Part shown: positions 2,562 to 55,339 of the stretch, in pieces
Layout: each line of letters begins with the position of its first letter
Numbering within the stretch: position 1 is the first letter of the stretch
Assembly (NCBI GenBank): GCA_016183025.1
Contig: JACPFL010000109.1
Span: 1 to 55,339 of the forward strand
Source of the DNA: Deltaproteobacteria bacterium
GTDB taxonomy: Bacteria > Desulfobacterota > JACPFL01
DNA length: 55,339 nt
Direction: 5' to 3'
Program-made: the position numbers and the translations under genes
Notes under the pieces: generated by a model
Databases searched by the model: none
What the model was told of the DNA's origin: nothing
The model's input: the letters and a program-made list of their open reading frames with translations, nothing else

Positions 2562-2864
2562 CTAACGTAATGCGGCTAAGCGGCCGCGTTTCCCTGCGGT
2601 CCGCTTGAGCCGCTTGTTAGGCACGGACCGATGACGCCGCGAACGGGCTGCAGCGGCATTCGCTGCGTTCAGCAACAGGCGCAGTGCGCTATTGACAGAG
2701 TTGTTGTCAGGGAACACCTCCGCGAGATCAGGCTCGATCAACACGAGGTTGGTCCCTGCAATGGCCCGTTTATAGTATTTTCCGCGCACCCCGCCCTTGA
2801 GCTTCGACAGGTCGTATTCGGGCCGAAGATCGTCCTCAATCGGCTGCGCCAATCCTTTTCGCAT
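2562..2864 (-). CDS. Putative antitoxin partner of BrnT (100 aa)
   Basis: ATG at 2864 is preceded by GAGGAGG and overlaps the brnT 3' end by 29 nt. The motif 'EYDLSKLKGGVRGKYYKR...NLVLIEPDLAEVFPDNNSVNSALRLL' is one I recognise from small antitoxins encoded next to DUF497 toxins. Confidence 0.65.
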   Translation of the reverse strand: MRKGLAQPIEDDLRPEYDLSKLKGGVRGKYYKRAIAGTNLVLIEPDLAEVFPDNNSVNSALRLLLNAANAAAARSRRHRSVPNKRLKRTAGKRGRLAALR

Positions 2865-3123
2865 ACTGCCTCCTCTCACGCTGTGTCGCTTTCCTCGCAC
2901 TGATTATCCGGGTGCGGTCCCCTCGTGCGGAGTGGGCCACAAAAAGAACGCGTTGCTTGGTTGAGACCCCGATAGTGACTTCGCGGTCTTCCTCGTCCGA
3001 GTGGTCCGGATCATCAAACGTAAGGGCCATTGGGTCAAGAAAGACCGACGCCGCTTCCGCGAAGGAAACGCCGTGTTTCCGAAGGTTCGCATCGGCCTTG
3101 ATCGCGTCCCATTCATACGTCAC
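2836..3123 (-). CDS. brnT: BrnT-family (DUF497) ribonuclease toxin (95 aa)
   Basis: 'YEWDAIKADANLRKHGVSFAEAASVFLDP...RIISARKATQRERRQY' is the canonical DUF497/BrnT pattern. GTG start at 3123. Confidence 0.85.
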   Translation of the reverse strand: MTYEWDAIKADANLRKHGVSFAEAASVFLDPMALTFDDPDHSDEEDREVTIGVSTKQRVLFVAHSARGDRTRIISARKATQRERRQYAKRIGAAD

Positions 3124-3290: not shown

Positions 3291-3581
3291 CTACGCCCTC
3301 ACGGCCTCAGCCACCGCCTCGGGGTTCTCGGCAGCTACCTTGAGCAGAGCCCGAGCCGGCCCTTCGGGCGTGCGGCGCCCTTGCTCCCAGTTCTGGAGCG
3401 TTGCGAGACTCACACCGATCATGAGGGCAAACTCGGACTGTGACTTGCCAAGCTTGACGCGAATCGACTTGATGTCCGCCGGCCTGAGTGTGTAGACCCG
3501 AGCGGGCTTCATTGTTCCGCGCCGGATCCGTCCGGCCTGGCGGACGCTCTTGACAAGAGTCTGGAAATCGCGCGCTCTCAC
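3291..3581 (-). CDS. XRE-family HTH antitoxin (HigA-like, 96 aa)
   Basis: HTH segment 'SQSEFALMIGVSLATLQNWEQGRRTPEGPARALL'. Its GTG start forms a GTGA overlap with the toxin stop. Confidence 0.8.
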   Translation of the reverse strand: MRARDFQTLVKSVRQAGRIRRGTMKPARVYTLRPADIKSIRVKLGKSQSEFALMIGVSLATLQNWEQGRRTPEGPARALLKVAAENPEAVAEAVRA

Positions 3582-3893
3582 TTGAACTCCTTCCGTACCA
3601 GCCGGCCGAGCACCTTCACCTGTTCTGGCGTGAGGTCACCTTGCTCCTGCTTTGTGTAGACGAAGAGCATGCAGAAGGTCTCAGTCGGCCTGTCCCAGTA
3701 GTAAATCACCCGGGCGCCGCCCCGCTTGGCTCGCCCCGTGATGCCCCAGCGCAGTTTACGAAGACCGGCGCTACCTCGGATGACGACACCTTGTTCCGGG
3801 CGCAGAGCCAAAGCAAGCTGCAGCGCCCGGTACTGTTCGTCTTCGAGAAGCGCGGTAACAGCCCTCGCGAAGACTGGTGTTTCAACAAATCAT
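3578..3893 (-). pseudogene. RelE/HigB-like toxin, frame broken one nt after the ATG
   Basis: The track ORF (3578-3811, TTG start) extends in frame upstream to 3889 as 'FVETPVFARAVTALLEDEQYRALQLALALRPEQG', the family-typical N-terminus, with no in-frame start. The only ATG (3893-3891) is followed by one extra A and then TTT GTT GAA. As written it reads ATG ATT TGT TGA. Confidence 0.6.
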
Positions 3894-3979: not shown

Positions 3980-4183
3980 TTAGAATCTGGGGTGACACAT
4001 CACCACCTTGATGTCCCTGATCCGGTCTTCGGGCACGCTCATCAGATCGTCGGAGAGGACCGCGACGTCGGCGAGCTTCAGGTCCGCGGGGGCCGGCCCT
4101 GCCGACTGCGGCCGGACCGCGGCGGGAAAGGCCCCCAGCAGGGGGAACATCCCCAGGATGACCAGCAACACCCTCTTGCCCAT
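3980..4183 (-). CDS. Small secreted hypothetical protein (67 aa)
   Basis: GAGGAG sits 8 nt before the ATG. N-terminal signal-like 'KRVLLVILGMFPLLGAFPAA'. No family recognised. Confidence 0.45.
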   Translation of the reverse strand: MGKRVLLVILGMFPLLGAFPAAVRPQSAGPAPADLKLADVAVLSDDLMSVPEDRIRDIKVVMCHPRF

Positions 4184-4308
4184 GGCCGCTCTCCTCGGGC
4201 GGGCCTTCCCGCACCGGAACGCGCATCTCGGGGAGTTCTTCGACCTGAAGGCGCGAACGGGCCTCGGGGGCGGACCCCGGCTTCCGGGCCCGCCCCGCGC
4301 CCCATGCG

Positions 4309-5325
4309 CTAGCGGCCGCGCTTGGGGAAGAGCTTCGGCAGGAAGTCGTTCGTGTAGATGTCTTCCACCGGGACCTTCGCCCCGACCTTCATGTACTCCG
4401 TGATGATGTCCCGCGTGGACTCCATCTTCTCCCGGGTCATGTAGCCGATCCCGAACTTCTTCGCCGTCTCCGTCATCAGGTGATCCACGGCGATCTCCCA
4501 GTCAGCGCGCGCCACCTCCGGGCTGATGGCCGTGTTGGCCTTGACGAAGAGCTCGATGGCGGGCCCGGAGTTCTCGACCGCCCACGCGAACCCCTTCATG
4601 GTCGCGTGCACGAAGCGGCGGACAAGGTCGGGTTTCTCCCGCACGAGCTTATCGGTCGCGATCAATCCATTCGAGTACACATCCACCCCGTAGTCGCTGT
4701 AGTAGATGACGTGGATGTCCTTCCCCTGTTTCTTCGCGGCAGCCCGAACGCTCGGGATCGCCGCGGCGAAGTATCCCACGGCGTCCACACGGCCCGCGAA
4801 CAGGCTGGGCGTCTGGGCATCCGCGGTCATGGTCACCCAGCGCACCTTCGCCTGGTCGATCCGGTTGGCGCCGGCGAAGGCCGGGAACACGACCTTGACT
4901 GCGTTCCCCTCCGGCGACCCGATGCTGCGCCCCTCAAGGTCCTTGGGGGTCGTCACCCCCGACCCCTTGAGCGTGACGATGGTGTACATCGACTTGTCGT
5001 GGATCATCGCGATCACTTTGACGGCCGCCCCCCGGGCTCGTGCGATGATGAGGGACGGCGTGTCAGCGAAGCCGACCTCCTCGGTCCCCGCCGCGATCCG
5101 CTTGACCGTGTCGCCCGAGCCGTGCCCGCGCAGGAGGGCCACGTCAAGGTTCTGCTCCTTGTAGAACCCTTTCTCCTGCGCGGCAAAGAACCCCGCGTGC
5201 TTGCCGTAGAACAGCCAGTCCAGCGCGAAGGATACCTTGTCCGCGGCCACCCCTGGTGATGGGCTCCAGCCGATCAGGCCCACCGCCAGCGCGATCCCCA
5301 GCACGATGCGTCTGGTGATCATCAT
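4309..5325 (-). CDS. NMT1/THI5-like (NitT/TauT-type) ABC substrate-binding protein, secreted (338 aa)
   Basis: The real start is ATGATG at 5325, with AGGAGG upstream. Signal peptide 'MMITRRIVLGIALAVGLIGWSPSPGVAA'. 'FALDWLFYGKHAGFFAAQEKGFYKEQNLDV' is typical of the NMT1 family. The upstream 378 aa of the 717-aa track ORF is read-through. Confidence 0.85.
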   Translation of the reverse strand: MMITRRIVLGIALAVGLIGWSPSPGVAADKVSFALDWLFYGKHAGFFAAQEKGFYKEQNLDVALLRGHGSGDTVKRIAAGTEEVGFADTPSLIIARARGAAVKVIAMIHDKSMYTIVTLKGSGVTTPKDLEGRSIGSPEGNAVKVVFPAFAGANRIDQAKVRWVTMTADAQTPSLFAGRVDAVGYFAAAIPSVRAAAKKQGKDIHVIYYSDYGVDVYSNGLIATDKLVREKPDLVRRFVHATMKGFAWAVENSGPAIELFVKANTAISPEVARADWEIAVDHLMTETAKKFGIGYMTREKMESTRDIITEYMKVGAKVPVEDIYTNDFLPKLFPKRGR

Positions 5326-5369
5326 GGCTTCCCCTCCTCTGCCCCCGACGACTGAATGCCTCCCGCGGC

Positions 5370-6404
5370 TCAGGGGCGTTGGTCCTCGGGCACGAGCCGG
5401 CCGTCCTGGACGACCGGCTCGCCGTCCAGCGCGAGGCTGGATCCCAGCATGGGCATGTCGAAGTGCGCGAGGGTGTGCCGGGTCCCGCCCGCCTCCGTGT
5501 TGGGCCCGGTCGAGAACTGCACGTTGCCGTAATACGAACGGGCGTCCATCCCGCAGCTCCGGGTCTCGAAGACCAGGGCCGGCCACTGGGCGCGTTCGTC
5601 CAGCCCCCAGCCGATGTGCGACACGGCGAACCCCTCGGGATCGCGGAAGCTCTCGAGCTGCTGCCGGAGCAGCAGGGCGTCCAGGCCGCCCTCGATCTTG
5701 CGGATGTACCCATCCTTGACCGTGAGCGTGATCGGCTGGCTGACGTAGCGGTTGAACGGCCAGATGAGGTCCCCGGTGCTGAGGACCACCCGCCCGGTCG
5801 TCCCTCCCTCGTTGGGCCAGGTGTAGAGGAACCCCGACGGCCAGTGATCCCAGCGCCCGGGCGTGTCGGTATAGCCGTACTGCGTGATCACCGGGTAGTC
5901 GCCGACCGCGATGACGAGGTCGGTCCCGGCCGGCGAGGTCACCCGAAGCTCGCGGGCTTTGCGCAGTCGTTCCGACCCCGCCTCCACACGGCGGCGAAGC
6001 GGCTCGGTCGGGAAGAGGCGAGCCAGGATCTCCACGGGCTCCACGACGAGCAGCATCCGTGCCCCGGCGCGCAGGATCTCCACCTGCTCGGGGGAGTGCA
6101 GGAGGAACATGAGGTCCACCACGAAGTCTGCCTTCTTCAGCGTCTCCAGCGCCACCCGCTGTCCTGTGAGCGGGGTCCGGCCCACGAAGGTCCCCCCCTT
6201 CTGACCCGGGTCTTGGCCGGCCGGCAGCGAGGGAAGCATGATCTCGAAGACCTGCGCCCCCAGCGCGCGGCACGCCGCGATGGAGGCCTGGATGTAGGCG
6301 GGCGAGCTGTGTGGCCCCGCCAGGACCACCACCGTCTCGCCCTCGTGGACCCGGCAGAGCTCGAACTCCGCCCGGAACAGCGCCGCCAGCTCCTCCGGTG
6401 TCAT
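5370..6404 (-). CDS. nicX: 2,5-dihydroxypyridine 5,6-dioxygenase-like protein (NicX/PicD family, M29-aminopeptidase fold)
   Basis: Long blocks match my recollection of P. putida NicX: 'LLHSPEQVEIL', 'GRWDHWPSGFLYTWPNE', 'SHIGWGL', 'MDARSYYGNVQFSTGPNTEAGG', 'HFDMP' (H-x-D). Start taken at MTPEEL (6404). Confidence 0.8.
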   Translation of the reverse strand: MTPEELAALFRAEFELCRVHEGETVVVLAGPHSSPAYIQASIAACRALGAQVFEIMLPSLPAGQDPGQKGGTFVGRTPLTGQRVALETLKKADFVVDLMFLLHSPEQVEILRAGARMLLVVEPVEILARLFPTEPLRRRVEAGSERLRKARELRVTSPAGTDLVIAVGDYPVITQYGYTDTPGRWDHWPSGFLYTWPNEGGTTGRVVLSTGDLIWPFNRYVSQPITLTVKDGYIRKIEGGLDALLLRQQLESFRDPEGFAVSHIGWGLDERAQWPALVFETRSCGMDARSYYGNVQFSTGPNTEAGGTRHTLAHFDMPMLGSSLALDGEPVVQDGRLVPEDQRP

Positions 6405-6540
6405 CGTCCCCCCTCCCGTTCTCCGGATCGCCAGGCCAGGCACTCCGCGCCCGGGGATCCACGTTCCCGCCCGAGGTCCCCTCCGGCGGCCCCTCAGCAG
6501 ATGCGCGCAGCCCTACTTTCCCCGCTCCCGCGCCCTCGGC

Positions 6541-7593
6541 TCAGGGCTTCGGGATCTTCGCCACGTTGAGCACGACCGGCACCTGGTTGCGGAGCTGCAC
6601 CATGTAGACGTTGAAATCGTAGGCCTGGTGGGTCGGCGTGAACCGGAACGTGCCGTTGAACCCCGAGTACTCCACCTTCTCCAGGGCGTCCCGGATCCGG
6701 GCCGACTCCGCGCTCCGCGCATCCGAGATCGCCTTGGCGATGATCTGCAGGACGAGGTACCCGGCGGCCGAGTACCCCTCACTGTAGGGGCCGGCGGCCT
6801 TGAGGTAGGCGTCGATGGTCCAGATCCCTTCGCCGAAGAGCTTGGCCTTGAGCCCCACCTCCTTGATCTGGCGGCTGAGCTGAATGGCATGGGTCTCGTA
6901 GGCGGTCATCCCCAGCGCGTCCACCCCCAGCGTCTTGATCCTCGTGAGATAGGAGTAGTAATCGGTCTCGCTGACCTGGTAGAAGTCGGTGCTGGCCACC
7001 CTGGCGCCGGCCTTCGTCATCGCTTCGCCAAACTCCTTCGCCATCCCCCGCCCCCAGTCCTCGTTGGTCACCAGGAAGGCGACCTTGCGGATCCCCTCCT
7101 TGTTGACCAGGGTCGGGGCGAAGGCGCGGGCCAGCAGGCGGGAGGTGGCCTGGGCCCGGAAGAACCACGGGTTCCCCTGCTCGGTCAGGACCGGGGCGGT
7201 CGAGACCCCGGTCACCTGGGGGATCCGGTACCGCTTCGTCACCTCCATCACCGCCCCTGTGGCCGAGCTGCAGAAGGCGCCGATGAGGGCCACGACCTGG
7301 TCCCGGTTGATGAGCTTTTCGGCCGCGGCCACGGACTGGGCCGGGTTGCAGATCCCATCCTCCACAAAGAGCTGGATGGGACGCCCGGCAACCCCGCCCC
7401 GGGCATTGATCTCCTCCATGGCGATCTTCGTTGCGTTCGCCTGGCTCTGGCCGCTGAAGGCGACCGGCCCGGTCAGCGGGGTCACCATCCCGATCCGGAT
7501 TGGCTCTGCTGCCCAGGCGACGGGCATCCCGCCGAAGAGAAGCGACACAAGCGCGACCAGCCACCCAACTCTTGTCCGTCCGCCCATGGTCAT
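6541..7593 (-). CDS. Liv-type (Leu/Ile/Val-binding family) periplasmic substrate-binding protein (350 aa)
   Basis: ATG at 7593 with an adjacent GGAGG. Signal peptide 'WLVALVSLLFGGMPVAWAA'. 'IRIGMVTPLTGPVAFSGQSQANATKIAMEEINARGGVAGRPIQL' is the Peripla_BP_6 hallmark. Confidence 0.9.
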   Translation of the reverse strand: MTMGGRTRVGWLVALVSLLFGGMPVAWAAEPIRIGMVTPLTGPVAFSGQSQANATKIAMEEINARGGVAGRPIQLFVEDGICNPAQSVAAAEKLINRDQVVALIGAFCSSATGAVMEVTKRYRIPQVTGVSTAPVLTEQGNPWFFRAQATSRLLARAFAPTLVNKEGIRKVAFLVTNEDWGRGMAKEFGEAMTKAGARVASTDFYQVSETDYYSYLTRIKTLGVDALGMTAYETHAIQLSRQIKEVGLKAKLFGEGIWTIDAYLKAAGPYSEGYSAAGYLVLQIIAKAISDARSAESARIRDALEKVEYSGFNGTFRFTPTHQAYDFNVYMVQLRNQVPVVLNVAKIPKP

Positions 7594-7650
7594 CCTCCGC
7601 TTGCGCTTCGAAACAGCCTTCCCAGCCGGGCCGTGGCGATACGACAGACC

Positions 7651-7676
7651 CCTGCCCAGCCCCTTGTCCGGGCAGG
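7651..7676 (-). terminator. Weak hairpin just after the upstream HO-like gene (7-bp stem, 12-nt loop)
   Basis: cctgccc ... gggcagg, 4 nt after the stop at 7680. No clear U-tract. Confidence 0.25.
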
Positions 7677-7679
7677 CGC

Positions 7680-8375
7680 TTACAGCGACGGGGACTTCCG
7701 CCCCTTCACGACGAACTCCCGGTACATCGCCTCGTGCCCGGCGATCTGGATCTCCAGGCAGTGCCTGGCTGCGAACCGGGCCCGGCGCTGCAGCTCCTCC
7801 GTCGTCGCGTAGTGCTCCAGCACCCAGTGCCCGATCTTCGAGTGCGCCACGTCGTCCAGCTCCCCGTGCTCCCCCCAGAAGCGGACCAGGGAGGGGTAGT
7901 TGTAGTACTGCCGCGCCGCCGCCGCCAGCCGGCCCCCGTACATCCCCACCGCCCCCTCGCTCGCGAAGTTGTTCGCCGCCGCCACCTCCACGATGTGCTT
8001 CCGCGCCAGCCAGTTGTAAAAGTACGGGAACGCCGCATACTCCGGGATGAGCTGCGCGTCCCGCGCCTCCTGCGGGTCTCGCCCCACCTCCCGCATGAAG
8101 TCCAGGATCCACTCCGGGTGCTCGTGCTCGTCGTGCAGGTAGTCGATGTACTGGGCCCGGACGACGGGATCCGGACAGATCCGCACCCAACCGGCGTAGA
8201 CGATCGGCATGTCCCGCAGGAAGCAGTAGAGCTGCTTCATGTACTCGACCACGTGGCCCAGCTCCAGCTTCCCCTCGTACCAGGCGCGGTTCATCGGGCT
8301 GTTGCAGAGCGCCTCCTGCAGCGGGCCGATCTCCTGCTGGAGCTGCTTCAGGAACTCGGGACCGGACAGTACCAT
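7680..8375 (-). CDS. Heme-oxygenase-like fold protein (TenA/PqqC/CADD, iron-containing redox enzyme family), paralog 1 (231 aa)
   Basis: ATG at 8375 after AGGAGGAGG. An all-helical-looking sequence with the His/Asp/Glu clusters 'LHDEHEHPEW', 'FASEGAV' and 'EHGELDDVAHS'. Confidence 0.7.
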   Translation of the reverse strand: MVLSGPEFLKQLQQEIGPLQEALCNSPMNRAWYEGKLELGHVVEYMKQLYCFLRDMPIVYAGWVRICPDPVVRAQYIDYLHDEHEHPEWILDFMREVGRDPQEARDAQLIPEYAAFPYFYNWLARKHIVEVAAANNFASEGAVGMYGGRLAAAARQYYNYPSLVRFWGEHGELDDVAHSKIGHWVLEHYATTEELQRRARFAARHCLEIQIAGHEAMYREFVVKGRKSPSL

Positions 8376-8458
8376 GGGTCCTCCTCCTCTCCTGTCATCG
8401 GGGGCTGCTGCCGCGGTCCCCCGCTCGTCGAAACCGTGTCCCCTGCCACGAGGGCGCC

Positions 8459-8486
8459 ATCCTATCCCTACGGCTGCCAATGTCAA
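8459..8486 (-). promoter_or_regulatory. Candidate promoter TTGACA-16-TAGGAT for HO-like paralog 1
   Basis: Minus strand reads TTGACAttggcagccgtagggaTAGGAT, about 80 nt upstream of the ATG, inside a 325-nt intergenic gap. Confidence 0.45.
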
Positions 8487-8700
8487 GAGCATCCGGACGC
8501 ATCCGGGAGCCCGGCCAGGCGCCCGGAGCGGGCCACGTTCTGCGTGACCAGGACGAGCGCCGGGCCACCGGGGGGATGAGGAAGGAGCGGGAGGGATCAG
8601 CGCCCCGCGAGCGGGAGCCGATGGTGGGCAGGGGGACCCAGAGGCCCCGGGTCCCGTTGGTCAGGCGCTCCCGGGGGACGACGGTGAGCTGGATGACCCG

Positions 8701-9393
8701 TCAGGCGAAGGCCTCGTAGGTGCTCAACATCTGGTAGTACGCTCCCGCGTAGGTCCAGGCGGCCTCCATGGCTTCCTGCTGCAGCTCCTCCGTGGTCGCG
8801 TACTCGTGCAGGGCCCGCAGGATGGAGTCGGAGTGGTCCTCGTCGGCCCTCACATGGACATCGAAGAACAGGACCTCGTCGTCGGTGAGCCCGTAAGACT
8901 TCCTCAGCCCATCGGCGATGAGCTTGAAGGCGATAGGGGACTGGTATTCGAACCCCATGGCACAGCCCATCCCCACGACCCAGTGCCGGTGTGCGAGGTA
9001 GAACTCCCCCAGGCGGATCACCTGGGCCGTCGCGGGGTGCAGTTTCGCCCGGTCCATCTCCTCACGCTTGAGCCCGAAGGCCACCCCCACACGGGCCATC
9101 AGCTCCGGATGGGAATCAGTCTTGGTGATCCCGCCCATCTCCTCTTCGTAGAGGTTGAGGAAGATCTCCCGCCGGAACTTCGGGATCGGGCAGTTCGCGT
9201 AGAGCGAGCCAATGTAGCGGACGATCTCGCGGGTCTGGATGTAGATCTGGTTGGCCCAGCCCGCCAGCTGGGTCTTGGTCAGCTCCCCCCGGTTGATCTT
9301 CTCGATCACCGGGTTCGATGCCAGAGCCCGCCCCGGGGCCTGCAGCCCCTGCTCGACGACCTTGACGTAGGTCTCGTAGTCCATCGGCGCCAT
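8701..9393 (-). CDS. Heme-oxygenase-like fold protein (TenA/PqqC/CADD family), paralog 2 (230 aa)
   Basis: Start taken at MAPMDYE (9393) after GGGGAGGG. Motifs are 'LYEEEMGG...SHPEL', 'GFEYQS' and 'DVHVRADEDHSD' (H-x3-D-x2-H). Confidence 0.7.
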   Translation of the reverse strand: MAPMDYETYVKVVEQGLQAPGRALASNPVIEKINRGELTKTQLAGWANQIYIQTREIVRYIGSLYANCPIPKFRREIFLNLYEEEMGGITKTDSHPELMARVGVAFGLKREEMDRAKLHPATAQVIRLGEFYLAHRHWVVGMGCAMGFEYQSPIAFKLIADGLRKSYGLTDDEVLFFDVHVRADEDHSDSILRALHEYATTEELQQEAMEAAWTYAGAYYQMLSTYEAFA

Positions 9394-9460
9394 CGTGCCC
9401 TCCCCTCTTACTGTGATCCACCCGGTCAATCGCCCTTCCCCGGGCAGCCGCGAGAGCGAG

Positions 9461-9488
9461 ATAATACGCCTGCCCCCTCTCTTGTCAA
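9461..9488 (-). promoter_or_regulatory. Strong sigma70-like promoter TTGACA-16-TATTAT for HO-like paralog 2
   Basis: Minus strand reads TTGACAagagagggggcaggcgTATTAT, with a perfect -35 and a 5/6 -10. It lies about 68 nt upstream of the ATG at 9393. Confidence 0.6.
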
Positions 9489-9516
9489 GGAGTGGAGTGC
9501 CTGCGGGCGCGGGCGG

Positions 9517-10476
9517 TCACCGGCCCCGGACGTTCTCGGCGAAGAGGTCGTCCACCGCGACCGGCTTGTCGATGAGCCCCTGCTCGTGCGACCACCGGAT
9601 CATGGTCTCGAGGGCCCGGCGGTTCTCCCGGAGGGTGAACGGCCACGGGTCGGGCCCCAGCACCCGCCGCTCCTCCTCCCAGGCGTCCATGGCCCAGGCC
9701 AGGGTCATCCGGTGCGGCTGTGAGCGGAACTCGTACTGGATGCGCTTGGCCGCCTCGAAGGCCGCCATGAGGTTCGGGCCGATCCACGGGTGTCGGCGGT
9801 AGAGCTCCGTGGGGATCACCAGCGGGTGCATGATCGGGAAGAGCCCCGTGGCCTCGTAGGAGCAGCGCTGGGCCTCGCGGAAATCCGGAAAGACCCGGCG
9901 CACCTCCGGGTGGCCATCCAGGCAGACCTTGGGGACGTTGGGGACCAGCAGCGCGTCGATCTTCCCGGCGAGCATCAACGCCCCCACGTCCTTGGACTCC
10001 GCCCGCTCCAGGCGGAGCCCCGGGACCTTCCGGTCCCGGTCCACCAGCTCCTCCTCGGTCGCCACCCAGGTGATGTCGGTCAGCGTCACGCCGTGGACGT
10101 GCTGCAGGACCCCCTTGGTCGTCAGCGCGAGGGTGTTCTCGTACGAGAGGATCCCCACGCGCTTCCCCGGCAGGTCCCCCGGCCCCTTGATCCCGGAACG
10201 GGCGCTGCAGAAGAAGAACTGCTCGCCGAACATGCGCCGGGTGAAGACCGGGACGGCGGTGAGCCAGTCCTCGCCCCGTGCGCGCATGACGATGTAGGAG
10301 GACATCGAGAACTCGCAGACGTCGAACTCCCGGTGCTCGTACATCCGCCGGTGCCGCGGCCCCGACGGGGCATACGCGATGTTGAGGTCAATCCCCTCGG
10401 GCCGGACCCGGCCGTCGAGCAGGGGCTGGAGGTAGTCGTAGTGGGAGATCGCCAGGGTCAGGGGAAGTCGGCTCAT
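9517..10476 (-). CDS. Cytoplasmic SBP-fold protein of the 4,5-dihydroxyphthalate decarboxylase (PhtD)-like group (319 aa)
   Basis: No signal peptide. 'LTLAISHYDYLQPLLDGRVRPEGIDLN...REFDVCEFSMSSYIV' matches the PhtD-like N-terminus as I recall it. Confidence 0.7.
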   Translation of the reverse strand: MSRLPLTLAISHYDYLQPLLDGRVRPEGIDLNIAYAPSGPRHRRMYEHREFDVCEFSMSSYIVMRARGEDWLTAVPVFTRRMFGEQFFFCSARSGIKGPGDLPGKRVGILSYENTLALTTKGVLQHVHGVTLTDITWVATEEELVDRDRKVPGLRLERAESKDVGALMLAGKIDALLVPNVPKVCLDGHPEVRRVFPDFREAQRCSYEATGLFPIMHPLVIPTELYRRHPWIGPNLMAAFEAAKRIQYEFRSQPHRMTLAWAMDAWEEERRVLGPDPWPFTLRENRRALETMIRWSHEQGLIDKPVAVDDLFAENVRGR

Positions 10477-10486
10477 CGGTCACTCC

Positions 10487-11266
10487 TTACGGGCGCTCCA
10501 CCTCGGCCTTGATGGAGAGCCACATGGAGGTGCACAGGTCGTTGAACTGCGCGTTCTTGCGTAGCTCCTCGAAATTGCGCGGGCGCGGGAGGTCCACCAC
10601 CACATGGTCCTTGACCCGTCCGGGCTGGGCGCTCATCACGATGATCCGGTCCGAGAGGAAGGCCGCCTCCTCGATGCTGTGGGTCACGAAGAGGACGGTC
10701 ATCCGCGTCTCCTCCCAGATCCTGAGGATCTCCTCCTGCATGACGCGGCGGGTCTGGGCGTCCAGGGCCCCGAAGGGCTCGTCCATGAGGAGCAGCTCGG
10801 GGTCCAGGGCCAGGGCCCGGGCGATGGCCACCCGTTGCTTCATCCCTCCGGAGAGCTCGTAGGGGAAGTGCTCGCTGAAGCGGCTCAGTCCCACCATGCG
10901 GGTCAGCCGCTCGACGGTCCCGTCCACGTCCTTCCCCTGCATCCGCTCCCGGGCGATCGCCAGCTCCAGCCCGAAGGCGATGTTGCGGCGGACGGAGAGC
11001 CAGGGGAACAGGATGAACTCCTGGAAGACGATGGAGCGCTCGGGGCCCGGCCTGGTGACCGGGCGGCCATGCATGACGATGGAGCCGGAGCTGGGCAGGA
11101 GCAGCCCGGCGATCATGTAGAGGAGCGTGCTCTTGCCGCAGCCCGACGGCCCCAGCAGGGTCACGAACTCCCCCTTGGTGATCCCGAAGCTCACGTCCTG
11201 GAGGGCCACCACCTCGGCCTTCCCCTTCTCCGAGAAGACCTTGGTGACCTGCCGGATCTCAACCAT
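10487..11266 (-). CDS. ABC transporter ATP-binding protein, NitT/TauT (SsuB/TauB-like) type (259 aa)
   Basis: Walker A 'GPSGCGKST', signature 'LSGGMKQRVAIARAL', Walker B 'LLLMDEPFGALD'. Confidence 0.9.
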   Translation of the reverse strand: MVEIRQVTKVFSEKGKAEVVALQDVSFGITKGEFVTLLGPSGCGKSTLLYMIAGLLLPSSGSIVMHGRPVTRPGPERSIVFQEFILFPWLSVRRNIAFGLELAIARERMQGKDVDGTVERLTRMVGLSRFSEHFPYELSGGMKQRVAIARALALDPELLLMDEPFGALDAQTRRVMQEEILRIWEETRMTVLFVTHSIEEAAFLSDRIIVMSAQPGRVKDHVVVDLPRPRNFEELRKNAQFNDLCTSMWLSIKAEVERP

Positions 11267-11389
11267 CAGCCGCCGGCCCTCCCCTTGCGCCCAGGCATCC
11301 CGGCGGGGGCGCCGGACGGTCAGAGGGGGTGGGGCGAACGGCAGGCCGGCGGGGGGCAGGGAACCGCCCCCCGTCTGCCCACCTCCCGG

Positions 11390-11584
11390 CTACTTCCGCA
11401 GCCCGTCCTTGAACAGGATCCCGCCGTGGCCGATATTCTCCTCGGGCAGGTCGTTGATCAGGACGTGGACGGCCTGGGCCGGGGCCCCGATGGTGCTCGT
11501 GAAGGCGTCCGTGACGGCCTTGACCAGGTCCCGCTTCTGGCTCTCGCTCCGGCCAGCCTTCATGTAGATCACCGCATACGGCAT
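11390..11584 (-). CDS. 4-oxalocrotonate tautomerase family enzyme (64 aa)
   Basis: ATG at 11584 after GAGGAGG. 'MPYAVIYMKAGRSESQKRDLVKAVTDAF' carries the catalytic Pro-1. Size is typical. Confidence 0.85.
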   Translation of the reverse strand: MPYAVIYMKAGRSESQKRDLVKAVTDAFTSTIGAPAQAVHVLINDLPEENIGHGGILFKDGLRK

Positions 11585-11738
11585 GGTCTTCCTCCTCTCT
11601 CCCGGCGAGCCGGGACATGGGGTGCTCGATCCACCAACCTCCGCATGATGCCGTGATGTGGTCGGCGCGCCGGCCGTGCACCGGCTCGCCCTCACCATGA
11701 GGACCTCGTCGGGGCCTCACGGCGAAGGTCTTGCGCCG

Positions 11739-12725
11739 CTAGTCCGGGAAGCGATCCATCAGGTGCTGCTTGATGAGGTCGAGCTGCTTCGGGTCATCGG
11801 TCATGGGGTTCACCATCAGGTACTGGAGCCCCGAGCGTCGCAGCTCCTCGATCCGCCCGCAGATGTCGTCCAGGGAGCCGATGAGATAGGAGGCCATGAG
11901 GTCCTCGAGGGAGCGCGTGCGCCCCATGATCGCCTCGAAGGCCGGCACCTGCTCCCGCAGCGCCTTCTCCCGGTCGTGCGTGTCCACGATGTGCACGAAC
12001 TGCGTGTGGGCGTAGAGGATGCTCTTCGGGTCCCGTCCGGCCGCGCGCGCGTGGGCTTTGACCTCCTCCCAGTCCTTCATCACGGAGTCCTTGTCGCTCC
12101 CGCTGGAGCGCCCGATCCAGGCATCGGCCTTCATGATCCGCCGGAGCACGCTCTTGGCGATGTAGGGCTTGTCGGGCGCGTCCGCGTGGGTCAGGGAGCC
12201 CCCGGCGACCCAGATGGGCGGGCACTCCGGCGGCATCGGGTCGATGGTGACGTTCTCGAACTGGAAAAACCGCCCCTTGAAGCTCGCGTTCCGCGTCGTC
12301 AGGAGGAGCTTGACCGAATCCAGCACCTCGTCGGTGCGAGCGCCCCGCTCCCGGAACGGCACCCCCATCGCCCGGTACTCGGCCGGCTCCCATCCACCCC
12401 CCACGCCCAGGATAAACCGCCCCCCCGTCAAGTAGACCATCGAGGCGATCTCCTTCGCCAGCAGCACCGGGTGACGGAAGGGGAGGATGAGGATCCCGGT
12501 CCCGATCGCCACGTGCTCGGTCACCCCGGACACGAAGGCGAGGACCTTGAGCGGCTCCAGCCAGGAGACCGCGTAGATGGCCGGGCTCGGGAGCAAGTGG
12601 TCGATGACCCAGATGCCGTGGAACCCCAGTTCCTCCACCCGCCGGCAGTACCCCCGGAGGGCGCGGGTCCGCTCGTACGTCAGGTCGGGCCAGACGTACG
12701 ACGGGATCCGGATGCCGAACTGCAT
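11739..12725 (-). CDS. LLM-class (luciferase-like) flavin/F420-dependent oxidoreductase (328 aa)
   Basis: ATG at 12725 after AGGAGG. 'MQFGIRIPS...ELGFHGIWVIDHL...GRFILGVGGGW' is the typical bacterial luciferase family pattern. Confidence 0.85.
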   Translation of the reverse strand: MQFGIRIPSYVWPDLTYERTRALRGYCRRVEELGFHGIWVIDHLLPSPAIYAVSWLEPLKVLAFVSGVTEHVAIGTGILILPFRHPVLLAKEIASMVYLTGGRFILGVGGGWEPAEYRAMGVPFRERGARTDEVLDSVKLLLTTRNASFKGRFFQFENVTIDPMPPECPPIWVAGGSLTHADAPDKPYIAKSVLRRIMKADAWIGRSSGSDKDSVMKDWEEVKAHARAAGRDPKSILYAHTQFVHIVDTHDREKALREQVPAFEAIMGRTRSLEDLMASYLIGSLDDICGRIEELRRSGLQYLMVNPMTDDPKQLDLIKQHLMDRFPD

Positions 12726-13893: not shown

Positions 13894-16164
13894 CTACCTG
13901 CCGGCCGCCTCCTGCTTGGCCTTCAGGGCCTTGCGGATCTTCTCCGGCGTGATGGGGAGGCTCGTGATCCGCACGCCCACCGCGTCGCAGACGGCATTGG
14001 CGATCACGGCGGCCACGGGCACGAGGGGGGTCTCCCCGGTCCCCTTGGCCCCGTAGGGGCCGAACGGGTCGATGGGCTCCACCAGGATGCTCTCCACGTT
14101 GGGCGCGAGCCAGGCGGTCGGGACCTCGTACTCCATGGGCTCCAGCACCCGCCCGTCCTCGAAGACCAGCTCTTCGCACAGGGCATAGCCGAGCCCCTGC
14201 ACCACCCCGCCCTCCACCTGCCCCTCGGCGCTGAGCGGGTTCAGGGCCCGGCCGAGGTCATCGGCCGCGACGACCCTCAGCACCTTGACCACGCCCGTCT
14301 CGGGGTTCACCTCGACCTCGGCGACCTGGCAGGCGAAGGAGTACGCGGGGGCGATGTTGCCGAACTTCTCCTTGCCGACCTGCACGGTCGTGTCCACGGA
14401 GAACTGCCCGCGGCCGATGACCGGCGTCCCGCCCTTCTTGTACATGCTGGCCTTCACCGCATCCGCCACCGTGAGGCTCCGGCCGGGCAGCCCCTTCACG
14501 GAGATGACCCCCTCCCGGATGACCAGGTCGTCGGGGTTGGCCTCCAGCTTCTCGGCGGCCGCCTCCAGGAGCTGGCGCTTGGCGTCCCGGGCCGCCATGC
14601 GCACGCCGTTCCCCCCGATGGCCGTCACGCGGGTGGCCCAGGCCCCCAGGGCGAAGGGCGTCACGTCGGTGTCGGCCACGGACATGTCCACGTCCTCGTA
14701 GCGCACCCCCAGCTCCTCGGCCGCGATCTGCGCGAAGATCGTGTTGGCGCCCTGCCCGATCTCCCCCTCGCCGCAGATCACGTTGGCCCGGCCGTCCTCA
14801 TTGAGCTTGACGAACGCCGCCGAGCCGTCGTAGTCCCCGATGATCCGGTTCCCCGAGACGTGGATGGCGCAGGCGACCCCCAGGCCGCGCCCGAAGGTCT
14901 TCTGCTGCCGCTTCGCGGGCCACCCGATCCGCTCCAGGGCCCGATCGATGCACTCGGTCAGGCCACAGGAGTTGATGACCCACCCGTGGGCCGTCACGTC
15001 GCCGGTCTGAGTCGCGTTCTTCCGGTGCATCTCCGCGGGGTCGATCCCGAGCTCGCGGGCGAGCATGTCGATCATGGAGCCGACGGCGAAGGTGATCTGG
15101 GGGTTGCCAAAGCCCCGGAAGGCGCCGGTGGGCGTCTTGTTCGTGTAGACGAGCTTCGCGTCCGTGCGGATGTTCCGGTAGCGGTAGGCGCTGTCCACCC
15201 GGGTGGCGGCCGTGGAGAGGATCCCCTGCGCCCAGTTCGAGTAGGCGCCGTTGTCCGCGATGATCTGCGTGTCCTTGGCGGTGATCACGCCATCCTTCCG
15301 GGCGCCCATCTTCAGGCGGATGATCATGGGGACCCGCGGCCTGGCGGCCTGCATCTCCTCCTCGCGGGTGTGCTCGCAGAGGACCGGGCGCCGGGACTTG
15401 AGCGCCAGCAGGGCCGTCACCACGGGCAGCTTCTGATCCAGCTTCCCCCCGAACCCGCCCCCGACGTAGGCCTGGATCATCCGGATGTCGGAGAGCCGGA
15501 GGTTCAGCGCCTTGGCGAGGAGCTGCCGGGGGATCTCCAGGAACTGCAGCGGGCACCAGATCGTCAGCTTCCCTTCGCTCCAGTTGGCCAGGGCCGCCAC
15601 GTTCTCCATGTAGTACTGGTGATGGCACTGGGTCCGGAAGGTCTCCTCGAGGACGACGGCGGCCTCGCGCAGGCCGGCCTCGATGTCCCCGCGCTCGAAG
15701 TTCAGGTGGGAGGCGACGTTGTTCGGGAACTGCTCGTGCAGCACGGGCGCGCCCGGCCGCAGGGCCTCCTCGGGGTCGAACACCGCCGGCAGCTCCTCGT
15801 ACTCCACCTCGATCAGGTCCAGGGCCTCCTCGGCCGTATCCCGATCGATGGCCGCCACCGCCGCCACCTCGTCGCCCACGTACCGGACCCGGTCGTCGCA
15901 GAGCGGGAGCTCGTCGTCCACCACCAGGCCGTACTTGATCTTCGGGGTGTCCGCCGCGGTGATGACGGCCCGCACGCCCGTCAGGCCCTTCGCCCGGGCC
16001 GTCTCGATCTGGCGGATCCGGGCGTGCGGGAACGGGCTCCGGAGCACCTTGCCGTACAGCATGCCGGGCAGGCGCATGTCCGCGGTGTACTTGGCGTCCC
16101 CCATCGCCTTGGCCTTCGCGTCGATGCGGGGGAATGGCTTGCCGATCACCGAGAACTCTGCCAT
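13894..16164 (-). CDS. Xanthine dehydrogenase-family molybdopterin-binding large subunit (756 aa, FRGFG type)
   Basis: 'GKPFPRIDAKAKAMGDAKYTADM', 'GGGFGGK', 'GAFRGFGNPQ' and 'GAKGTGETP' (catalytic Glu region). Confidence 0.9.
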   Translation of the reverse strand: MAEFSVIGKPFPRIDAKAKAMGDAKYTADMRLPGMLYGKVLRSPFPHARIRQIETARAKGLTGVRAVITAADTPKIKYGLVVDDELPLCDDRVRYVGDEVAAVAAIDRDTAEEALDLIEVEYEELPAVFDPEEALRPGAPVLHEQFPNNVASHLNFERGDIEAGLREAAVVLEETFRTQCHHQYYMENVAALANWSEGKLTIWCPLQFLEIPRQLLAKALNLRLSDIRMIQAYVGGGFGGKLDQKLPVVTALLALKSRRPVLCEHTREEEMQAARPRVPMIIRLKMGARKDGVITAKDTQIIADNGAYSNWAQGILSTAATRVDSAYRYRNIRTDAKLVYTNKTPTGAFRGFGNPQITFAVGSMIDMLARELGIDPAEMHRKNATQTGDVTAHGWVINSCGLTECIDRALERIGWPAKRQQKTFGRGLGVACAIHVSGNRIIGDYDGSAAFVKLNEDGRANVICGEGEIGQGANTIFAQIAAEELGVRYEDVDMSVADTDVTPFALGAWATRVTAIGGNGVRMAARDAKRQLLEAAAEKLEANPDDLVIREGVISVKGLPGRSLTVADAVKASMYKKGGTPVIGRGQFSVDTTVQVGKEKFGNIAPAYSFACQVAEVEVNPETGVVKVLRVVAADDLGRALNPLSAEGQVEGGVVQGLGYALCEELVFEDGRVLEPMEYEVPTAWLAPNVESILVEPIDPFGPYGAKGTGETPLVPVAAVIANAVCDAVGVRITSLPITPEKIRKALKAKQEAAGR

Positions 16165-16168
16165 GGCG

Positions 16169-16642
16169 CTACCTCTCTCCGCGGGCCACCGCCCGCACGG
16201 CCTCGACGATCTTCACGTAGCCGGTGCAGCGGCAGATGTTGCTCCCCACGGCCTCGTAGATCTCCTCCTCGCTGGGATAGGGGTTCTGGAGGAGCAGCCC
16301 CTTGGCTATAATGATCATCCCCGGGGTGCAGTACCCGCACTGGATCGCCCCGTGCCGGACGAAGGCCTCCTGGAGCGGATCGAGCTGACCGCCCGGGGCC
16401 AGCCCCTCGATCGTCGTGATCTCGCGCCCCTTCACCTGGAAGGCCATCTTGATGCAGCTGGAGACCGGCTGGCCGTCCACCAGCACCGTGCAGGCCCCGC
16501 AGATCCCGGCCCCGCACGACTCCTTGGTCCCCGTCAGCCCCAGCTCGTCCCGGAGCAGCTCCAGGAGGGTCCGCTGGGGCGGCAGCTCCATCTCGTACCG
16601 GTCCCCGTTGATCGTGAAGCTCATGGGAATCCGCGTCGCCAT
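16169..16642 (-). CDS. [2Fe-2S]-binding small subunit (CoxS-like, 157 aa)
   Basis: 'CGAGICGACTVLVDG' and 'QCGYCTPGMI...CRCTGY' are the two Fe-S cluster motifs. Confidence 0.92.
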   Translation of the reverse strand: MATRIPMSFTINGDRYEMELPPQRTLLELLRDELGLTGTKESCGAGICGACTVLVDGQPVSSCIKMAFQVKGREITTIEGLAPGGQLDPLQEAFVRHGAIQCGYCTPGMIIIAKGLLLQNPYPSEEEIYEAVGSNICRCTGYVKIVEAVRAVARGER

Positions 16643-16644
16643 CC

Positions 16645-17529
16645 CTACCCCTGGTAGCCGGGCCCGAGCCCGGTCAGGCCCTCCAGGGCCTGGCGGCTCA
16701 GCACCTCGACCATGTCCCGCTTGTACCCGGCCGACGCCCAGGGGTCATCCCAGGGCGCGGTCCCCGCGGCGGCCGCGGCCCCGACCTGTCGCAGCAGCTC
16801 CGGCGTGGCGCGCTTCCCGCGGAGCAGGTCCTCCGCCCGCCGCGCCCGGAGCGGCGTGGGGGAGACGCCACCGAGGACGATGTGGACCTCCTCGACGGGG
16901 GCGCCATCGCCGCCACGGATGGCCACGGCGATCCCCACAATGGCCATGCTGCTCTTGGCCTTCTGCCCCACGAACTTGATGTAGCTCCCCCGCAGCGGGC
17001 GGCCGTGTCCGGGCAGGCGGATCTCGGTGAGGAGCTCGTCGGGCGCCAACACGCTCTTGAAGGCATCGCTGAAGAACTGCTCCACGGGCAGGGTCCGGGT
17101 CCCACCCCGGGCCGCGATCACCACCTCCGCCCCCAGGGTGATCAGCACCGGCGCGGTGTCGATGGCCGGATGCGCGTAGCAGAGGCTGCCCCCGATGGTC
17201 CCGGAGTTGCGCACCCGCACCGAGCCGATGTTGGCCGCGGTCGTGGCGAGCTGCGGGCAACGCTCGCGGACGAGCGGATGGGTCGCCACCGCCCCATGGG
17301 TCATGAGGGCGCCGAGGCGCAGCCCGCCGCCCGGCATGGGGTCCGCGGTACCGAGCGCGGCCGGCAGGCTCTGGAGCGTGACCAGCACGCGCGGGCTGAC
17401 GATCCGTCGCTTCAGGAAGTAGACGAGGCTGTTCCCGCCGGCGATCACCCTGGCGTCCTCCCCGTGGCGGCCGAGGATCTCGCAGACTTCCCCGACGCTC
17501 ACGGGCTCCGCGTACTCGAATGGCCTCAT
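16645..17529 (-). CDS. FAD-binding medium subunit (CoxM-like, 294 aa)
   Basis: 'ARVIAGGNSL', 'VRNSGTIGGSL' and a CO-dehydrogenase flavoprotein C-terminal-like tail. Confidence 0.88.
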   Translation of the reverse strand: MRPFEYAEPVSVGEVCEILGRHGEDARVIAGGNSLVYFLKRRIVSPRVLVTLQSLPAALGTADPMPGGGLRLGALMTHGAVATHPLVRERCPQLATTAANIGSVRVRNSGTIGGSLCYAHPAIDTAPVLITLGAEVVIAARGGTRTLPVEQFFSDAFKSVLAPDELLTEIRLPGHGRPLRGSYIKFVGQKAKSSMAIVGIAVAIRGGDGAPVEEVHIVLGGVSPTPLRARRAEDLLRGKRATPELLRQVGAAAAAGTAPWDDPWASAGYKRDMVEVLSRQALEGLTGLGPGYQG

Positions 17530-26363: not shown

Positions 26364-26834
26364 TCAGCGGGCGGCGTTCGCGCACGCCTCGATCGCCTCG
26401 ATGATCTGGTGGTACCCCGTGCAGCGGCAGAGGTTGCCGGCGATCGCCCGCTTGATCTCCGCAGGGGTGGGGTGCGGGTTCTCATCCAGGAGGGCCTTGG
26501 CCGAGAGGATCATCCCGGGGGTGCAGAAGCCGCACTGGAACCCGTAGTGCTCGATGAACGCGCGCTGCAGGGGGTGGAGCTCGCCGCCGCTGGCCAGCCC
26601 CTCGATCGTCACGATCTTGCGGCCAGCCGCGTGCGGGGCGAGGGTCAGACAGGCGTGCACGGTGCGGCCGTCGAGGATGACCGTGCAGGCGCCGCACTCC
26701 CCCATGCGGCAGTTGACCTTCGTCCCGGTGAGCCCCAGGGTATCCCGGAGCACGTCCACCAGGGTCTGGGTCGGTTCCACCTCCACCTGGTAGCCGCGGC
26801 CGTTGACCGTCAGTCGGATCTTCCGGCGAGCCAT
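26364..26834 (-). CDS. [2Fe-2S]-binding small subunit (CoxS-like, 156 aa)
   Basis: 'CRMGECGACTVILDG' and 'QCGFCTPGMI...CRCTGY'. Confidence 0.92.
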   Translation of the reverse strand: MARRKIRLTVNGRGYQVEVEPTQTLVDVLRDTLGLTGTKVNCRMGECGACTVILDGRTVHACLTLAPHAAGRKIVTIEGLASGGELHPLQRAFIEHYGFQCGFCTPGMILSAKALLDENPHPTPAEIKRAIAGNLCRCTGYHQIIEAIEACANAAR

Positions 26835-26836
26835 GA

Positions 26837-27757: not shown

Positions 27758-27811
27758 CCCCAGACCCTCTGCCTCGACCTCACTCCCCGGCCTGCCCAGT
27801 CGCCGGCTCCC

Positions 27812-53422: not shown

Positions 53423-53499
53423 CGTCCACCTCCTGCCCCCTGAACCGGGCCGTCGCCCGGCCTCGCTGACCGAGGGCCGCGGCCCCGGCGCCACTCCGG

Positions 53500-54973: not shown

Positions 54974-55070
54974 GTTTCGCTCACCTCCCCTCCATCTCTC
55001 ACAACTATTCTTACCGTCGCTCGCGTCGAAGTCAAAAGGCTTTTGTCCGCGGGATGTTGGCACATTCCTG

Positions 55071-55099
55071 TTGACGGTCTCGGCCGGCTCGTCTATCGT
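55071..55099 (+). promoter_or_regulatory. Promoter TTGACG-17-TATCGT of the bactofilin gene
   Basis: Plus strand reads TTGACGgtctcggccggctcgtcTATCGT, about 58 nt upstream of the GTG. The GAGGAGG Shine-Dalgarno sits 7 nt before the start. Confidence 0.5.
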
Positions 55100-55157
55100 C
55101 AAAGAAGAACCTCGTTGAAACCGCGTCCATGTCCATCCCCCGAGAGGAGGTCCCATC

Positions 55158-55339
55158 GTGTTCCTGACACGTGTCGGCATGCGCTTGAAGCCGAGGGGGC
55201 ATGCCTTCTCATTCCTCCAGCAGGGGGCGGAGTTCACCGGCAAGCTCAGCTTCGACGGGATGGTCCGTATCGACGGGTCCTTCGAGGGTGAGATCACGGG
55301 GAGCGGGACGCTCATCGTCGGCGTGGGCGCGCGGGTCAG
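55158..55339 (+). CDS. Bactofilin (DUF583/CcmA) family protein, 5' part only (runs off the window)
   Basis: Manual translation gives 'VFLTRVGMRLKPRGHAFSFLQQGAEFTGKLSFDGMVRIDGSFEGEITGSGTLIVGVGARV', which shows the bactofilin beta-helix repeat pattern. It is not in the ORF track because it is truncated. Confidence 0.7.
   Translation, partial: MFLTRVGMRLKPRGHAFSFLQQGAEFTGKLSFDGMVRIDGSFEGEITGSGTLIVGVGARV

Follow-up and report, generated by a model that had tools for sequence, protein, structure and literature searches.

The stretch of DNA analyzed here, contig JACPFL010000109.1 of a Deltaproteobacteria bacterium (55,339 nt in full, hereafter the window), carries two adjacent minus-strand genes, p1 and p2, that encode members of the heme-oxygenase-like diiron oxidase (HDO) superfamily. 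The explanation we favor, with about as much doubt as confidence, is that the two products are separate O2-activating enzymes with a dimetal center, most likely diiron, that act in pyridine degradation of the nic/pic type; the metal, the substrate and the product are what we infer here. Either or both would probably hydroxylate a hydroxypyridine or its carboxylate to the substrate of NicX (2,5-dihydroxypyridine 5,6-dioxygenase), as judged from gene context: the clusters in question hold molybdenum (Mo) hydroxylases, decarboxylases and NicX but not NicC or PicB, and the HDOs, which lie beside NicX, are the only O2-activating candidates.

The original prediction had placed two adjacent genes for 230-residue proteins of the TenA/PqqC/CADD fold at 7680-9488. 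Both genes are present there, although p1 is one residue longer, and the fold is borne out by profiles and models alike. Each protein passes PF14518 (Haem_oxygenas_2, "iron-containing redox enzyme"; cut-off 28.9 bits), p1 with 56.9 bits (3e-15) and p2 with 109 bits (3e-31), and each also passes PF03070 (TenA/PqqC; cut-off 22), more weakly, at 30-32 bits. With 25% identity (BLASTP, E 1e-8) and an hhalign probability of 98.9, p1 and p2 are by sequence distant homologous paralogs. AlphaFold2 (AF2) models had a mean predicted local distance difference test score of 92 and a predicted template modeling (TM) score of 0.89 for each protein. Foldseek against the Protein Data Bank (PDB) matched the two models to CADD, UndA, PqqC, BesC and HrmI, with TM scores of 0.73-0.87. 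For p2, the first match was CtCADD (8vag/8va9, TM 0.82/0.87), and p1 matched a mix of UndA, PqqC, CADD and TenA-like structures (TM 0.76-0.85). Both proteins are predicted to have the seven-helix heme-oxygenase-like fold.

HDOs are defined by a ligand motif of three His and three carboxylates on core helices alpha1-alpha3 (PMC13108848). When p2 is aligned to CADD/CT610 (1rcw, 8va9) and to a 267-aa "4-aminobenzoate synthase" of the NePabS type (9pj4), at E values of 6e-13 to 5e-10, its residues E84, H95, E149, H180, D184 and H187 align in sequence with the CADD ligands E81, H88, E142, H174, D178 and H181, respectively. All six are invariant in a 21-sequence family alignment that extends down to 29% identity. 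The motifs EEEMGG...H, FEYQ and HVRADEDH that had been singled out in p2 are all present, and the suggestion that the last of these forms the second ligand cluster agrees with the alignment, which has H180, D184 and H187 among the matched, invariant residues.

For p1, the candidate ligands are E83, H86, E140, H170, D175 and H178, which L-INS-i alignments over both families place in the p2-ligand columns. The p1 family conserves E83, H86, E140, H170, a D/E and H178, and its profile, built from 6 sequences, matches CADD at 1.3e-9. An 8-residue deletion relative to p2 between the first Glu and His leaves E-x2-H in p1. The register of E140 differed by 1-2 residues between alignment methods; no other invariant acidic residue occurs up to two positions from the aligned column, and an invariant E130 lies ten residues upstream. 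HDEHEH, SEG and HGELDDVAH also occur in p1 as described earlier, but the last had been read as H-x3-D-x3-H, which needs correction, as the aligned carboxylate is D175 and the spacing H-x4-D-x2-H. Judged by alignment, p1 and p2 each keep the complete conserved 3-His/3-carboxylate set at the CADD/UndA ligand positions; the outcome named beforehand as speaking against a diiron enzyme, ligands off the metal site in a TenA- or PqqC-type pocket, is not what the alignment gave. A dimetal site, most likely diiron, is predicted in both proteins.

The genes stand in the last part of a single minus-strand catabolic cluster (4309-31547). In order of transcription, this comprises Amidohydro_1, a PucD-like Mo-hydroxylase with FAD and 2Fe-2S subunits and a Liv-type ABC transporter; then CoxL-like and XdhA/4-hydroxybenzoyl-CoA-reductase-like large subunits that share one FAD and one 2Fe-2S subunit, and Amidohydro_2; then an F420-type luciferase-like monooxygenase (LLM) family oxidoreductase, a 4-oxalocrotonate-tautomerase-like protein, an ABC ATPase and a 4,5-dihydroxyphthalate decarboxylase homolog; and finally p2 and p1, followed by a periplasmic binding protein, the NicX homolog and a binding protein of the NMT1 type. 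In the NicX homolog, the Fe ligands (His265, Ser302, His318 and Asp320) and the residues that position the substrate (Leu104, His105, Arg293 and Glu308) are all conserved (residue roles from PMC7910607). The Mo-hydroxylases, at 13894-19874 and 26364-30094, have three large subunits (MoCoBD) but two FAD and two 2Fe-2S subunits, with just one FAD/FeS pair between the CoxL-like (17526-19874) and the XdhA-like (13894-16164) large subunit. Two decarboxylase types are found in the cluster, PhtD-like and Amidohydro_2; the product of 9517-10476 has an NMT1-like fold and no signal peptide. The LLM oxidoreductase scores as F420-dependent (TIGR03619, 187.7 versus a cut-off of 166.9). From their annotation, NicX with all its Fe ligands and the three Mo-hydroxylases identify the context as pyridine-ring degradation of the nic/pic type, in agreement with the heteroaromatic cluster of the original prediction.

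In nic/pic pathways, Mo-hydroxylases add a water-derived hydroxyl beside the ring nitrogen, and the second hydroxyl toward 2,5-dihydroxypyridine requires O2. This O2-dependent hydroxyl comes from the flavin enzyme NicC, with decarboxylation, or from the Rieske enzyme PicB followed by the decarboxylase PicC (the PicB/PicC/PicD scheme). PicB was considered as a possible HDO and is a Rieske oxygenase. No NicC-type flavin monooxygenase (FAD_binding_3) or Rieske oxygenase is found among the assigned open reading frames (ORFs) of the window, nor do NicC-type or PicB-type genes occur among the genes of the HDO-carrying clusters surveyed (the window and the related loci L049-L053, described below). 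NicD- and NicF-like genes were likewise absent from the window in tblastn searches with the alpha/beta hydrolase and isochorismatase of L050.

In the pathway we propose, the Mo-hydroxylases would install the hydroxyl next to the ring nitrogen from water, and one or both HDOs would add the second one, using O2 and two electrons. This hydroxylation could be coupled to loss of the carboxylate, as in flavin NicC; alternatively, a PhtD-like or Amidohydro_2 decarboxylase could act after hydroxylation, as with PicB/PicC. The product, 2,5-dihydroxypyridine, would then be cleaved by NicX. The adjacent Rieske ferredoxin would probably supply the electrons in relatives that have one, and p1 and p2 would most likely serve different substrates or steps, with separate regulation from their own promoters. 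Oxidative C-C cleavage and decarboxylation are established HDO reactions, with the substrate as a ligand of Fe1 (PMC13108848).

Relatives of the two proteins were collected by a word-indexed protein search (21 matches for p2 and 6 for p1), a profile search (~70 p1-family clusters at 42-51% identity) and an exhaustive single-sequence search (95 relatives at E <=1e-3). Gene neighborhoods were surveyed by tblastn at 53 loci, referred to below by L numbers, and a scan of genome contigs yielded six loci. A neighbor-joining tree has three clades: A, the p2 family; B, the p1 family; and C, the sister of B. In clade C the helix-2 Glu ligand is absent and there is a ~27-residue insertion, so to judge by sequence these proteins may bind one metal or be non-catalytic. 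Clade C members of ~250 aa with Gly at the helix-2 Glu position, at L010 11514-12287 (minus strand) and L029 848-1594, co-occur with p2-type genes.

Clade B is the family linked to NicX. Several unrelated metagenome contigs, namely L049 (7757-11950 and 14779-17281), L050/L051 (L050 8074-11428), L052 (8001-12182) and L053 (8001-11185), share the gene order HDO-a, NicX, HDO-b, alpha/beta hydrolase. L052, like the clade B locus L048, derives from a Mb-scale metagenome-assembled contig. Genes of the L053 operon stand 1-16 nt apart; in L049 and L052, additional small genes come after HDO-a and before NicX. The two HDOs share 66-69% identity, with the full ligand set in both; HDO-b of L050 is P0168, whose source is named by NCBI as a Deltaproteobacteria metagenome-assembled genome (MAG). 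A NicD/NicF-like alpha/beta hydrolase and isochorismatase genes are present in L049-L053, and the surroundings of these operons include NMT1-like genes, Amidohydro_2 or UbiD decarboxylases and CoxMSL, usually also with a split thiamine-pyrophosphate (TPP) enzyme pair, DUF3891, short-chain dehydrogenases/reductases (SDRs) and an IclR regulator. Elsewhere, NicX follows a p1-like gene in L017, and in L015, an alphaproteobacterial MAG, NicX lies 3 kb from a p2-like gene. As a separate observation, the HDO-b after the first NicX of L049 (10574-11233) has no Pfam match on record and its C-terminal third stops aligning, which fits a frameshift, either in a pseudogene or as an assembly indel.

In clade A a recurrent neighbor is a small Rieske ferredoxin (~100-108 aa), orthologous across lineages at 44-57% identity, in loci of soil and alphaproteobacterial origin. 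The ferredoxin gene immediately precedes p2-family genes in L005/6/8/19, L011-14, L036, L038, L039 and L042; other arrangements are Rieske-CoxL-HDO (L045) and HDO-HDO-Rieske (L029). A CoxL-like gene directly precedes the HDO gene in L016 (a p1 ortholog, 83% identity), L025, L030 and L045. Genes for binding proteins also recur, NMT1-like genes flanking HDO genes in L003, L049, L050, L052 and L053 and a Peripla_BP_6 gene following p2 orthologs in L005, L010, L020 and L024. In the alphaproteobacterial MAGs of L011-L014, L036, L039 and L042 the p2-like HDO belongs to a gene block that comprises a major facilitator superfamily (MFS) transporter, a Rieske-oxygenase alpha subunit, an SMP-30/gluconolactonase-like protein, RidA, the small Rieske protein, the HDO and an amidase.

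Taken together with the window, these loci allow a more specific and more tentative proposal, namely that the NicX-linked HDOs (the p1 family, and p2 here) are the first catabolic HDOs. They would be diiron hydroxylases of pyridones or hydroxypyridine carboxylates, perhaps with decarboxylation and perhaps acting as an alpha/beta pair, that replace NicC and PicB and in many lineages have a dedicated Rieske ferredoxin as reductant.

The DNA around the two start codons bears on whether p1 and p2 work together. The original prediction had described gaps of 325 nt and 123 nt with TTGACA-type promoters, and both the gap lengths (the second at 9394-9516, between p2 and the next upstream gene) and a consensus site in each gap were recovered. 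Sites were scored by sigma-70 consensus as matches out of 12 positions, with the expectation taken from shuffles, transcription itself being a consensus prediction. Two sites were found in 4000-12000 against 0.6 expected, one directly upstream of each gene, with transcription starts predicted near 9454 for p2 and 8452 for p1, and the near-consensus site ahead of p2 is the best match in the scanned bases 4000-52000. Over these ~48 kb, 8 sites were found against ~2.5 expected, and further ones lie at 31603-31575, ahead of the first gene of the catabolic cluster, and at 49558/49676 in a divergent intergenic region. Since several of the 8 sites are at sensible positions, the consensus seems meaningful in this organism. 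p1 starts with the ATG at 8375, with GGAGGAGGA ahead of it; Shine-Dalgarno-like sequences precede both genes, whose third-position GC is 0.90-0.91 in a window of 69% GC.

About 100 nt upstream of the p2 start codon there is a CTTGACAA box, which is common to the p2 orthologs in L005, L010 and L020 and could be a promoter plus operator. In these three loci the box is followed by GAGTC(G/T)ATAGCCTCC and the flanking DNA has diverged; its positions are ~7010-7060 in L005, between the Rieske gene and the HDO gene, ~3900-3950 in L010, ~650-700 in L020 and 9461-9488 in the window. The region upstream of p1 gave no alignment with that of its L016 ortholog, which sits behind the CoxL-like gene, and the p1 promoter site is not conserved there. 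Within the 325-nt spacer the folding z-score of -1.14 is unremarkable and gives no indication of a riboswitch or terminator, and the scan showed no terminator-like site between p2 and p1. Neither Rfam at its gathering thresholds nor a tRNA scan had any match in the window, and tblastn of the spacer and of the full window turned up no Rieske ferredoxin or remains of one, only chance matches (E >1).

These arrangements have to be weighed against the possibility that p1 and p2 form one heteromeric enzyme, an alpha/beta HDO in which both subunits are catalytic or one plays a structural or effector role. Clusters with two HDO genes are recurrent and cover all clade combinations: as A+A tandems in L001-4, L009 and L021-23 (gaps 23-75 nt), as A+B in the window, as A+C in L010 and L029, and as B+B flanking NicX in L049-L053. 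Because of this recurrence some partnership of paired HDOs is possible, and the clade C partners without the helix-2 Glu ligand would fit a non-catalytic subunit. However, the nearest p2 orthologs (82-83% identity; L005, L010, L020) occur without p1, behind the Rieske ferredoxin in L005 and alone in L010, and the nearest p1 ortholog (L016) occurs without p2. Neither p1 nor p2 looks degenerate, with full ligand sets in both, and the HDOs studied so far need no protein effector (PMC13108848). The separate promoter-like sites and the 325-nt spacer make obligate co-expression disfavored, and overall we regard a p1/p2 heteromer as unlikely.

Another possibility, which we also judge improbable, is that both proteins are diiron HDOs that carry out some other reaction, for instance N-oxygenation, desaturation or cleavage of a C-C bond in a side chain or a non-aromatic intermediate, and so do not make the substrate of NicX. 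HDOs differ widely in their chemistry, and identical ligand sets give different reactions (PMC13108848), and the neighbors of the p2 family vary, including amidase, Amidohydro_3, M20 peptidase, RidA and SMP-30. Yet the adjacency of HDO and NicX is tight and repeated, down to the short gaps of L053, and the assigned ORFs of the window offer no other candidate for the O2-dependent hydroxylation.

Several observations nevertheless weigh against separate HDOs that make the NicX substrate. One p1 relative, L048 (clade B, 51% identity), is not next to NicX, which would equally suit a different reaction. The NicX homologs of the related loci are 34-55% identical to the queries used and could act on a related diol instead of 2,5-dihydroxypyridine, and the LLM oxidoreductase of the window could in principle be an oxygenase. 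As for electron supply, the 55-kb window has no gene for a ferredoxin or reductase that would serve the HDOs, nor is one visible in the p1-family (clade B) operons, and in the alphaproteobacterial loci a Rieske oxygenase alpha subunit is encoded near the small Rieske protein, which may serve that oxygenase instead. Finally, the p1 of the window and its close orthologs have a one-residue insertion between ligands H170 and D175, giving H170-x4-D175-x2-H178 in place of the canonical H-x3-D/E-x2-H, which more distant members of the family retain as H-x3-E-x2-H. The same segment falls in the alpha3 region (residues 171-180), where model confidence is lower, and the other four p1 models were poorer than the best one because the AF2 alignment for p1 held only 6 sequences.

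Enzymes of the same fold that use no metal, i.e., a PqqC-like cofactor-less oxidase or a TenA-like aminopyrimidine hydrolase, would fit the neighboring NMT1/THI5-like proteins, NMT1-like genes being frequent neighbors of these HDOs. Relatives are annotated as PqqC by JGI, PqqC structures are good fold matches, and the PF03070 cut-off is passed by both proteins. We nevertheless consider a metal-free enzyme very improbable. All six metal-ligand positions are filled and invariant, and the PF14518 scores are far above those for PF03070. PqqC itself can be set aside, as both proteins, with 26 and 19.5 bits, fall far short of the TIGR02111 equivalog cut-off of 240 and no pqq genes are found among the annotated ORFs of the window. 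TenA uses a catalytic Cys, Cys135 in B. subtilis, which has no conserved counterpart here: Cys is missing from the AAANNF[AGS][SN]E helix of the p1 family, and C144 of p2 is N, A, S or T in homologs. The sole invariant Cys (C67/C68) is in a CP motif, where CADD has a Cys too. Thiamine-pyrimidine salvage by TenA with NMT1/ThiY-like and ABC proteins was rejected on ligand conservation, the missing catalytic Cys and the NicX/Mo-hydroxylase context.

That p2 is a CADD/PabS-type self-sacrificing para-aminobenzoate (pABA) synthase is scarcely credible, even though its nearest solved structures and nearest NCBIfam model are CADD-type, since TIGR04305 gives 104.7 bits for p2 and 37.3 for p1 against a cut-off of 200, the sacrificed Tyr27 and Lys152 of these synthases (PMC13108848) correspond to I30 and I159 in p2 (N29 in p1; I/V/M at the Tyr27 position throughout the p2 family), and the genes around p2 are catabolic, not folate-related.

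Table 1. Positions of the two HDO genes, neighboring elements of the window and small Rieske genes of related loci
Feature	Position	Strand	Description
p1	7680-8375	minus	231-aa HDO-family protein, clade B (NicX-linked family)
p2	8701-9393	minus	230-aa HDO-family protein, clade A (CADD-like branch)
Spacer p2/p1	8376-8700	minus	325 nt; no gene, known RNA or notable structure found
Sigma-70-like promoter upstream of p1	8459-8486	minus	TTGACA, 16 nt, TAGGAT; 10/12
Sigma-70-like promoter upstream of p2	9461-9488	minus	TTGACA, 16 nt, TATTAT; 11/12
NicX homolog (2,5-dihydroxypyridine 5,6-dioxygenase)	5370-6443	minus	PDB 7cn3 4.5e-100; probable start 6404
Periplasmic binding protein (Peripla_BP_6)	6541-7593	minus	downstream of p1
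4,5-Dihydroxyphthalate decarboxylase homolog	9517-10476	minus	PDB 9jp7 1.8e-44; weak PF09084; directly upstream of p2
Catabolic-cluster genes upstream of decarboxylase homolog	10487-31547	minus	ABC ATPase through Amidohydro_1
Small Rieske gene	L005 6674-7000		[2Fe-2S] protein beside HDO
Small Rieske gene	L013 9553-9861		[2Fe-2S] protein beside HDO
Small Rieske gene	L014 9603-9902		[2Fe-2S] protein beside HDO
Small Rieske gene	L029 1751-2032		[2Fe-2S] protein beside HDO
Small Rieske gene	L038 122-415		[2Fe-2S] protein beside HDO
Small Rieske gene	L045 228-545		[2Fe-2S] protein beside HDO

Two other parts of the window deserve mention. The segment 1906-4309 has a GC content of 61-63%, versus 68-70%, and no long ORFs, and by eye it contains two small toxin-antitoxin-like pairs on the minus strand, a BrnT/DUF497-like gene (2836-3123) with a BrnA-like partner (2562-2900) and a RelE/HigB-like gene (3578-3811) with a partner of the XRE helix-turn-helix (HTH) type (3291-3581). 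It may be a small mobile islet at the border of the catabolic cluster. At the edge of the window and outside the cluster, 52640-55315 (minus) encodes an 891-aa aldehyde dehydrogenase/enoyl-CoA hydratase fusion, by glycine-cleavage and folate genes.

The HDO superfamily itself is known and large. A review of March 2026 counts about a dozen validated HDOs among more than 10,000 sequences, names only biosynthetic and virulence roles, and gives mainly fatty or amino acids as substrates (PMC13108848). The original prediction knew of no description of a heterodimeric HDO pair in a pyridine-type pathway, and in the full-text literature we found no HDO at all for pyridine or any other catabolic pathway, nor a Rieske-HDO pairing, subscription-only texts being outside this search; full-text searches for NicX with "iron-containing redox enzyme" and for dipicolinate clusters gave nothing relevant. 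What is new is the widely conserved catabolic context with a specific predicted reaction. If the proposal is true, it would add a new reaction class to the superfamily, the oxygenation of an N-heteroaromatic ring in degradation. It would also provide a candidate for the "missing hydroxylase" of many nic/pic-like clusters of uncultured organisms without NicC or PicB, as well as a substrate shortlist for deorphanizing an abundant soil and freshwater HDO clade, with the Rieske ferredoxin as natural redox partner. The paired HDOs might be heteromeric, for which there is no precedent in the family.

Among characterized systems, the Fe/Mn or Fe2 pABA synthases CtCADD and NePabS (1rcw, 8va9, 9pj4) are the best match of p2 in both sequence and fold. 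They have the same 3His/3carboxylate set, with an E-to-H loop 4 residues longer in p2, and a conserved Cys-Pro/Asp motif before helix alpha1 is found in both. Unlike them, p2 lacks the sacrificial Tyr27/Lys152 and falls far below the TIGR04305 cut-off, and it lies in a catabolic pyridine cluster, its relatives adjoining a Rieske ferredoxin.

UndA, a fatty-acid oxidative decarboxylase (4wwj, 6p5q), is among the top fold matches of p1 (TM 0.76). Its first ligand pair, which we take to be E101-x2-H104, has the short E-x2-H spacing seen in p1, and its oxidative loss of an Fe1-bound carboxylate is a precedent for decarboxylative hydroxylation. Unlike p1, to which it is ~17% identical, UndA acts on an aliphatic substrate in biosynthesis, and nothing here indicates alkene formation.

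Soluble diiron monooxygenases with a Rieske ferredoxin, of the toluene 4-monooxygenase (T4MO) type, offer a functional analogy only, in that a diiron center hydroxylates an aromatic or pyridone ring with electrons from a small Rieske-type ferredoxin. T4MO has a small Rieske-type component, and HpdABCDE is reportedly a 2-hydroxypyridine 5-monooxygenase of the soluble diiron type. However, the T4MO-type enzymes have a ferritin-like four-helix bundle, several subunits and an effector, whereas p1 and p2 are single ~230-aa proteins of the heme-oxygenase fold.

In the pathway itself, the counterparts would be NicC, the flavin 6-hydroxynicotinate 3-monooxygenase, and PicB, the Rieske 6-hydroxypicolinate 3-monooxygenase. 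The HDOs would take the same place, between the Mo-hydroxylase and NicX, but the folds and cofactors are unrelated, and by this analogy the HDOs would be a non-orthologous replacement of NicC and PicB.

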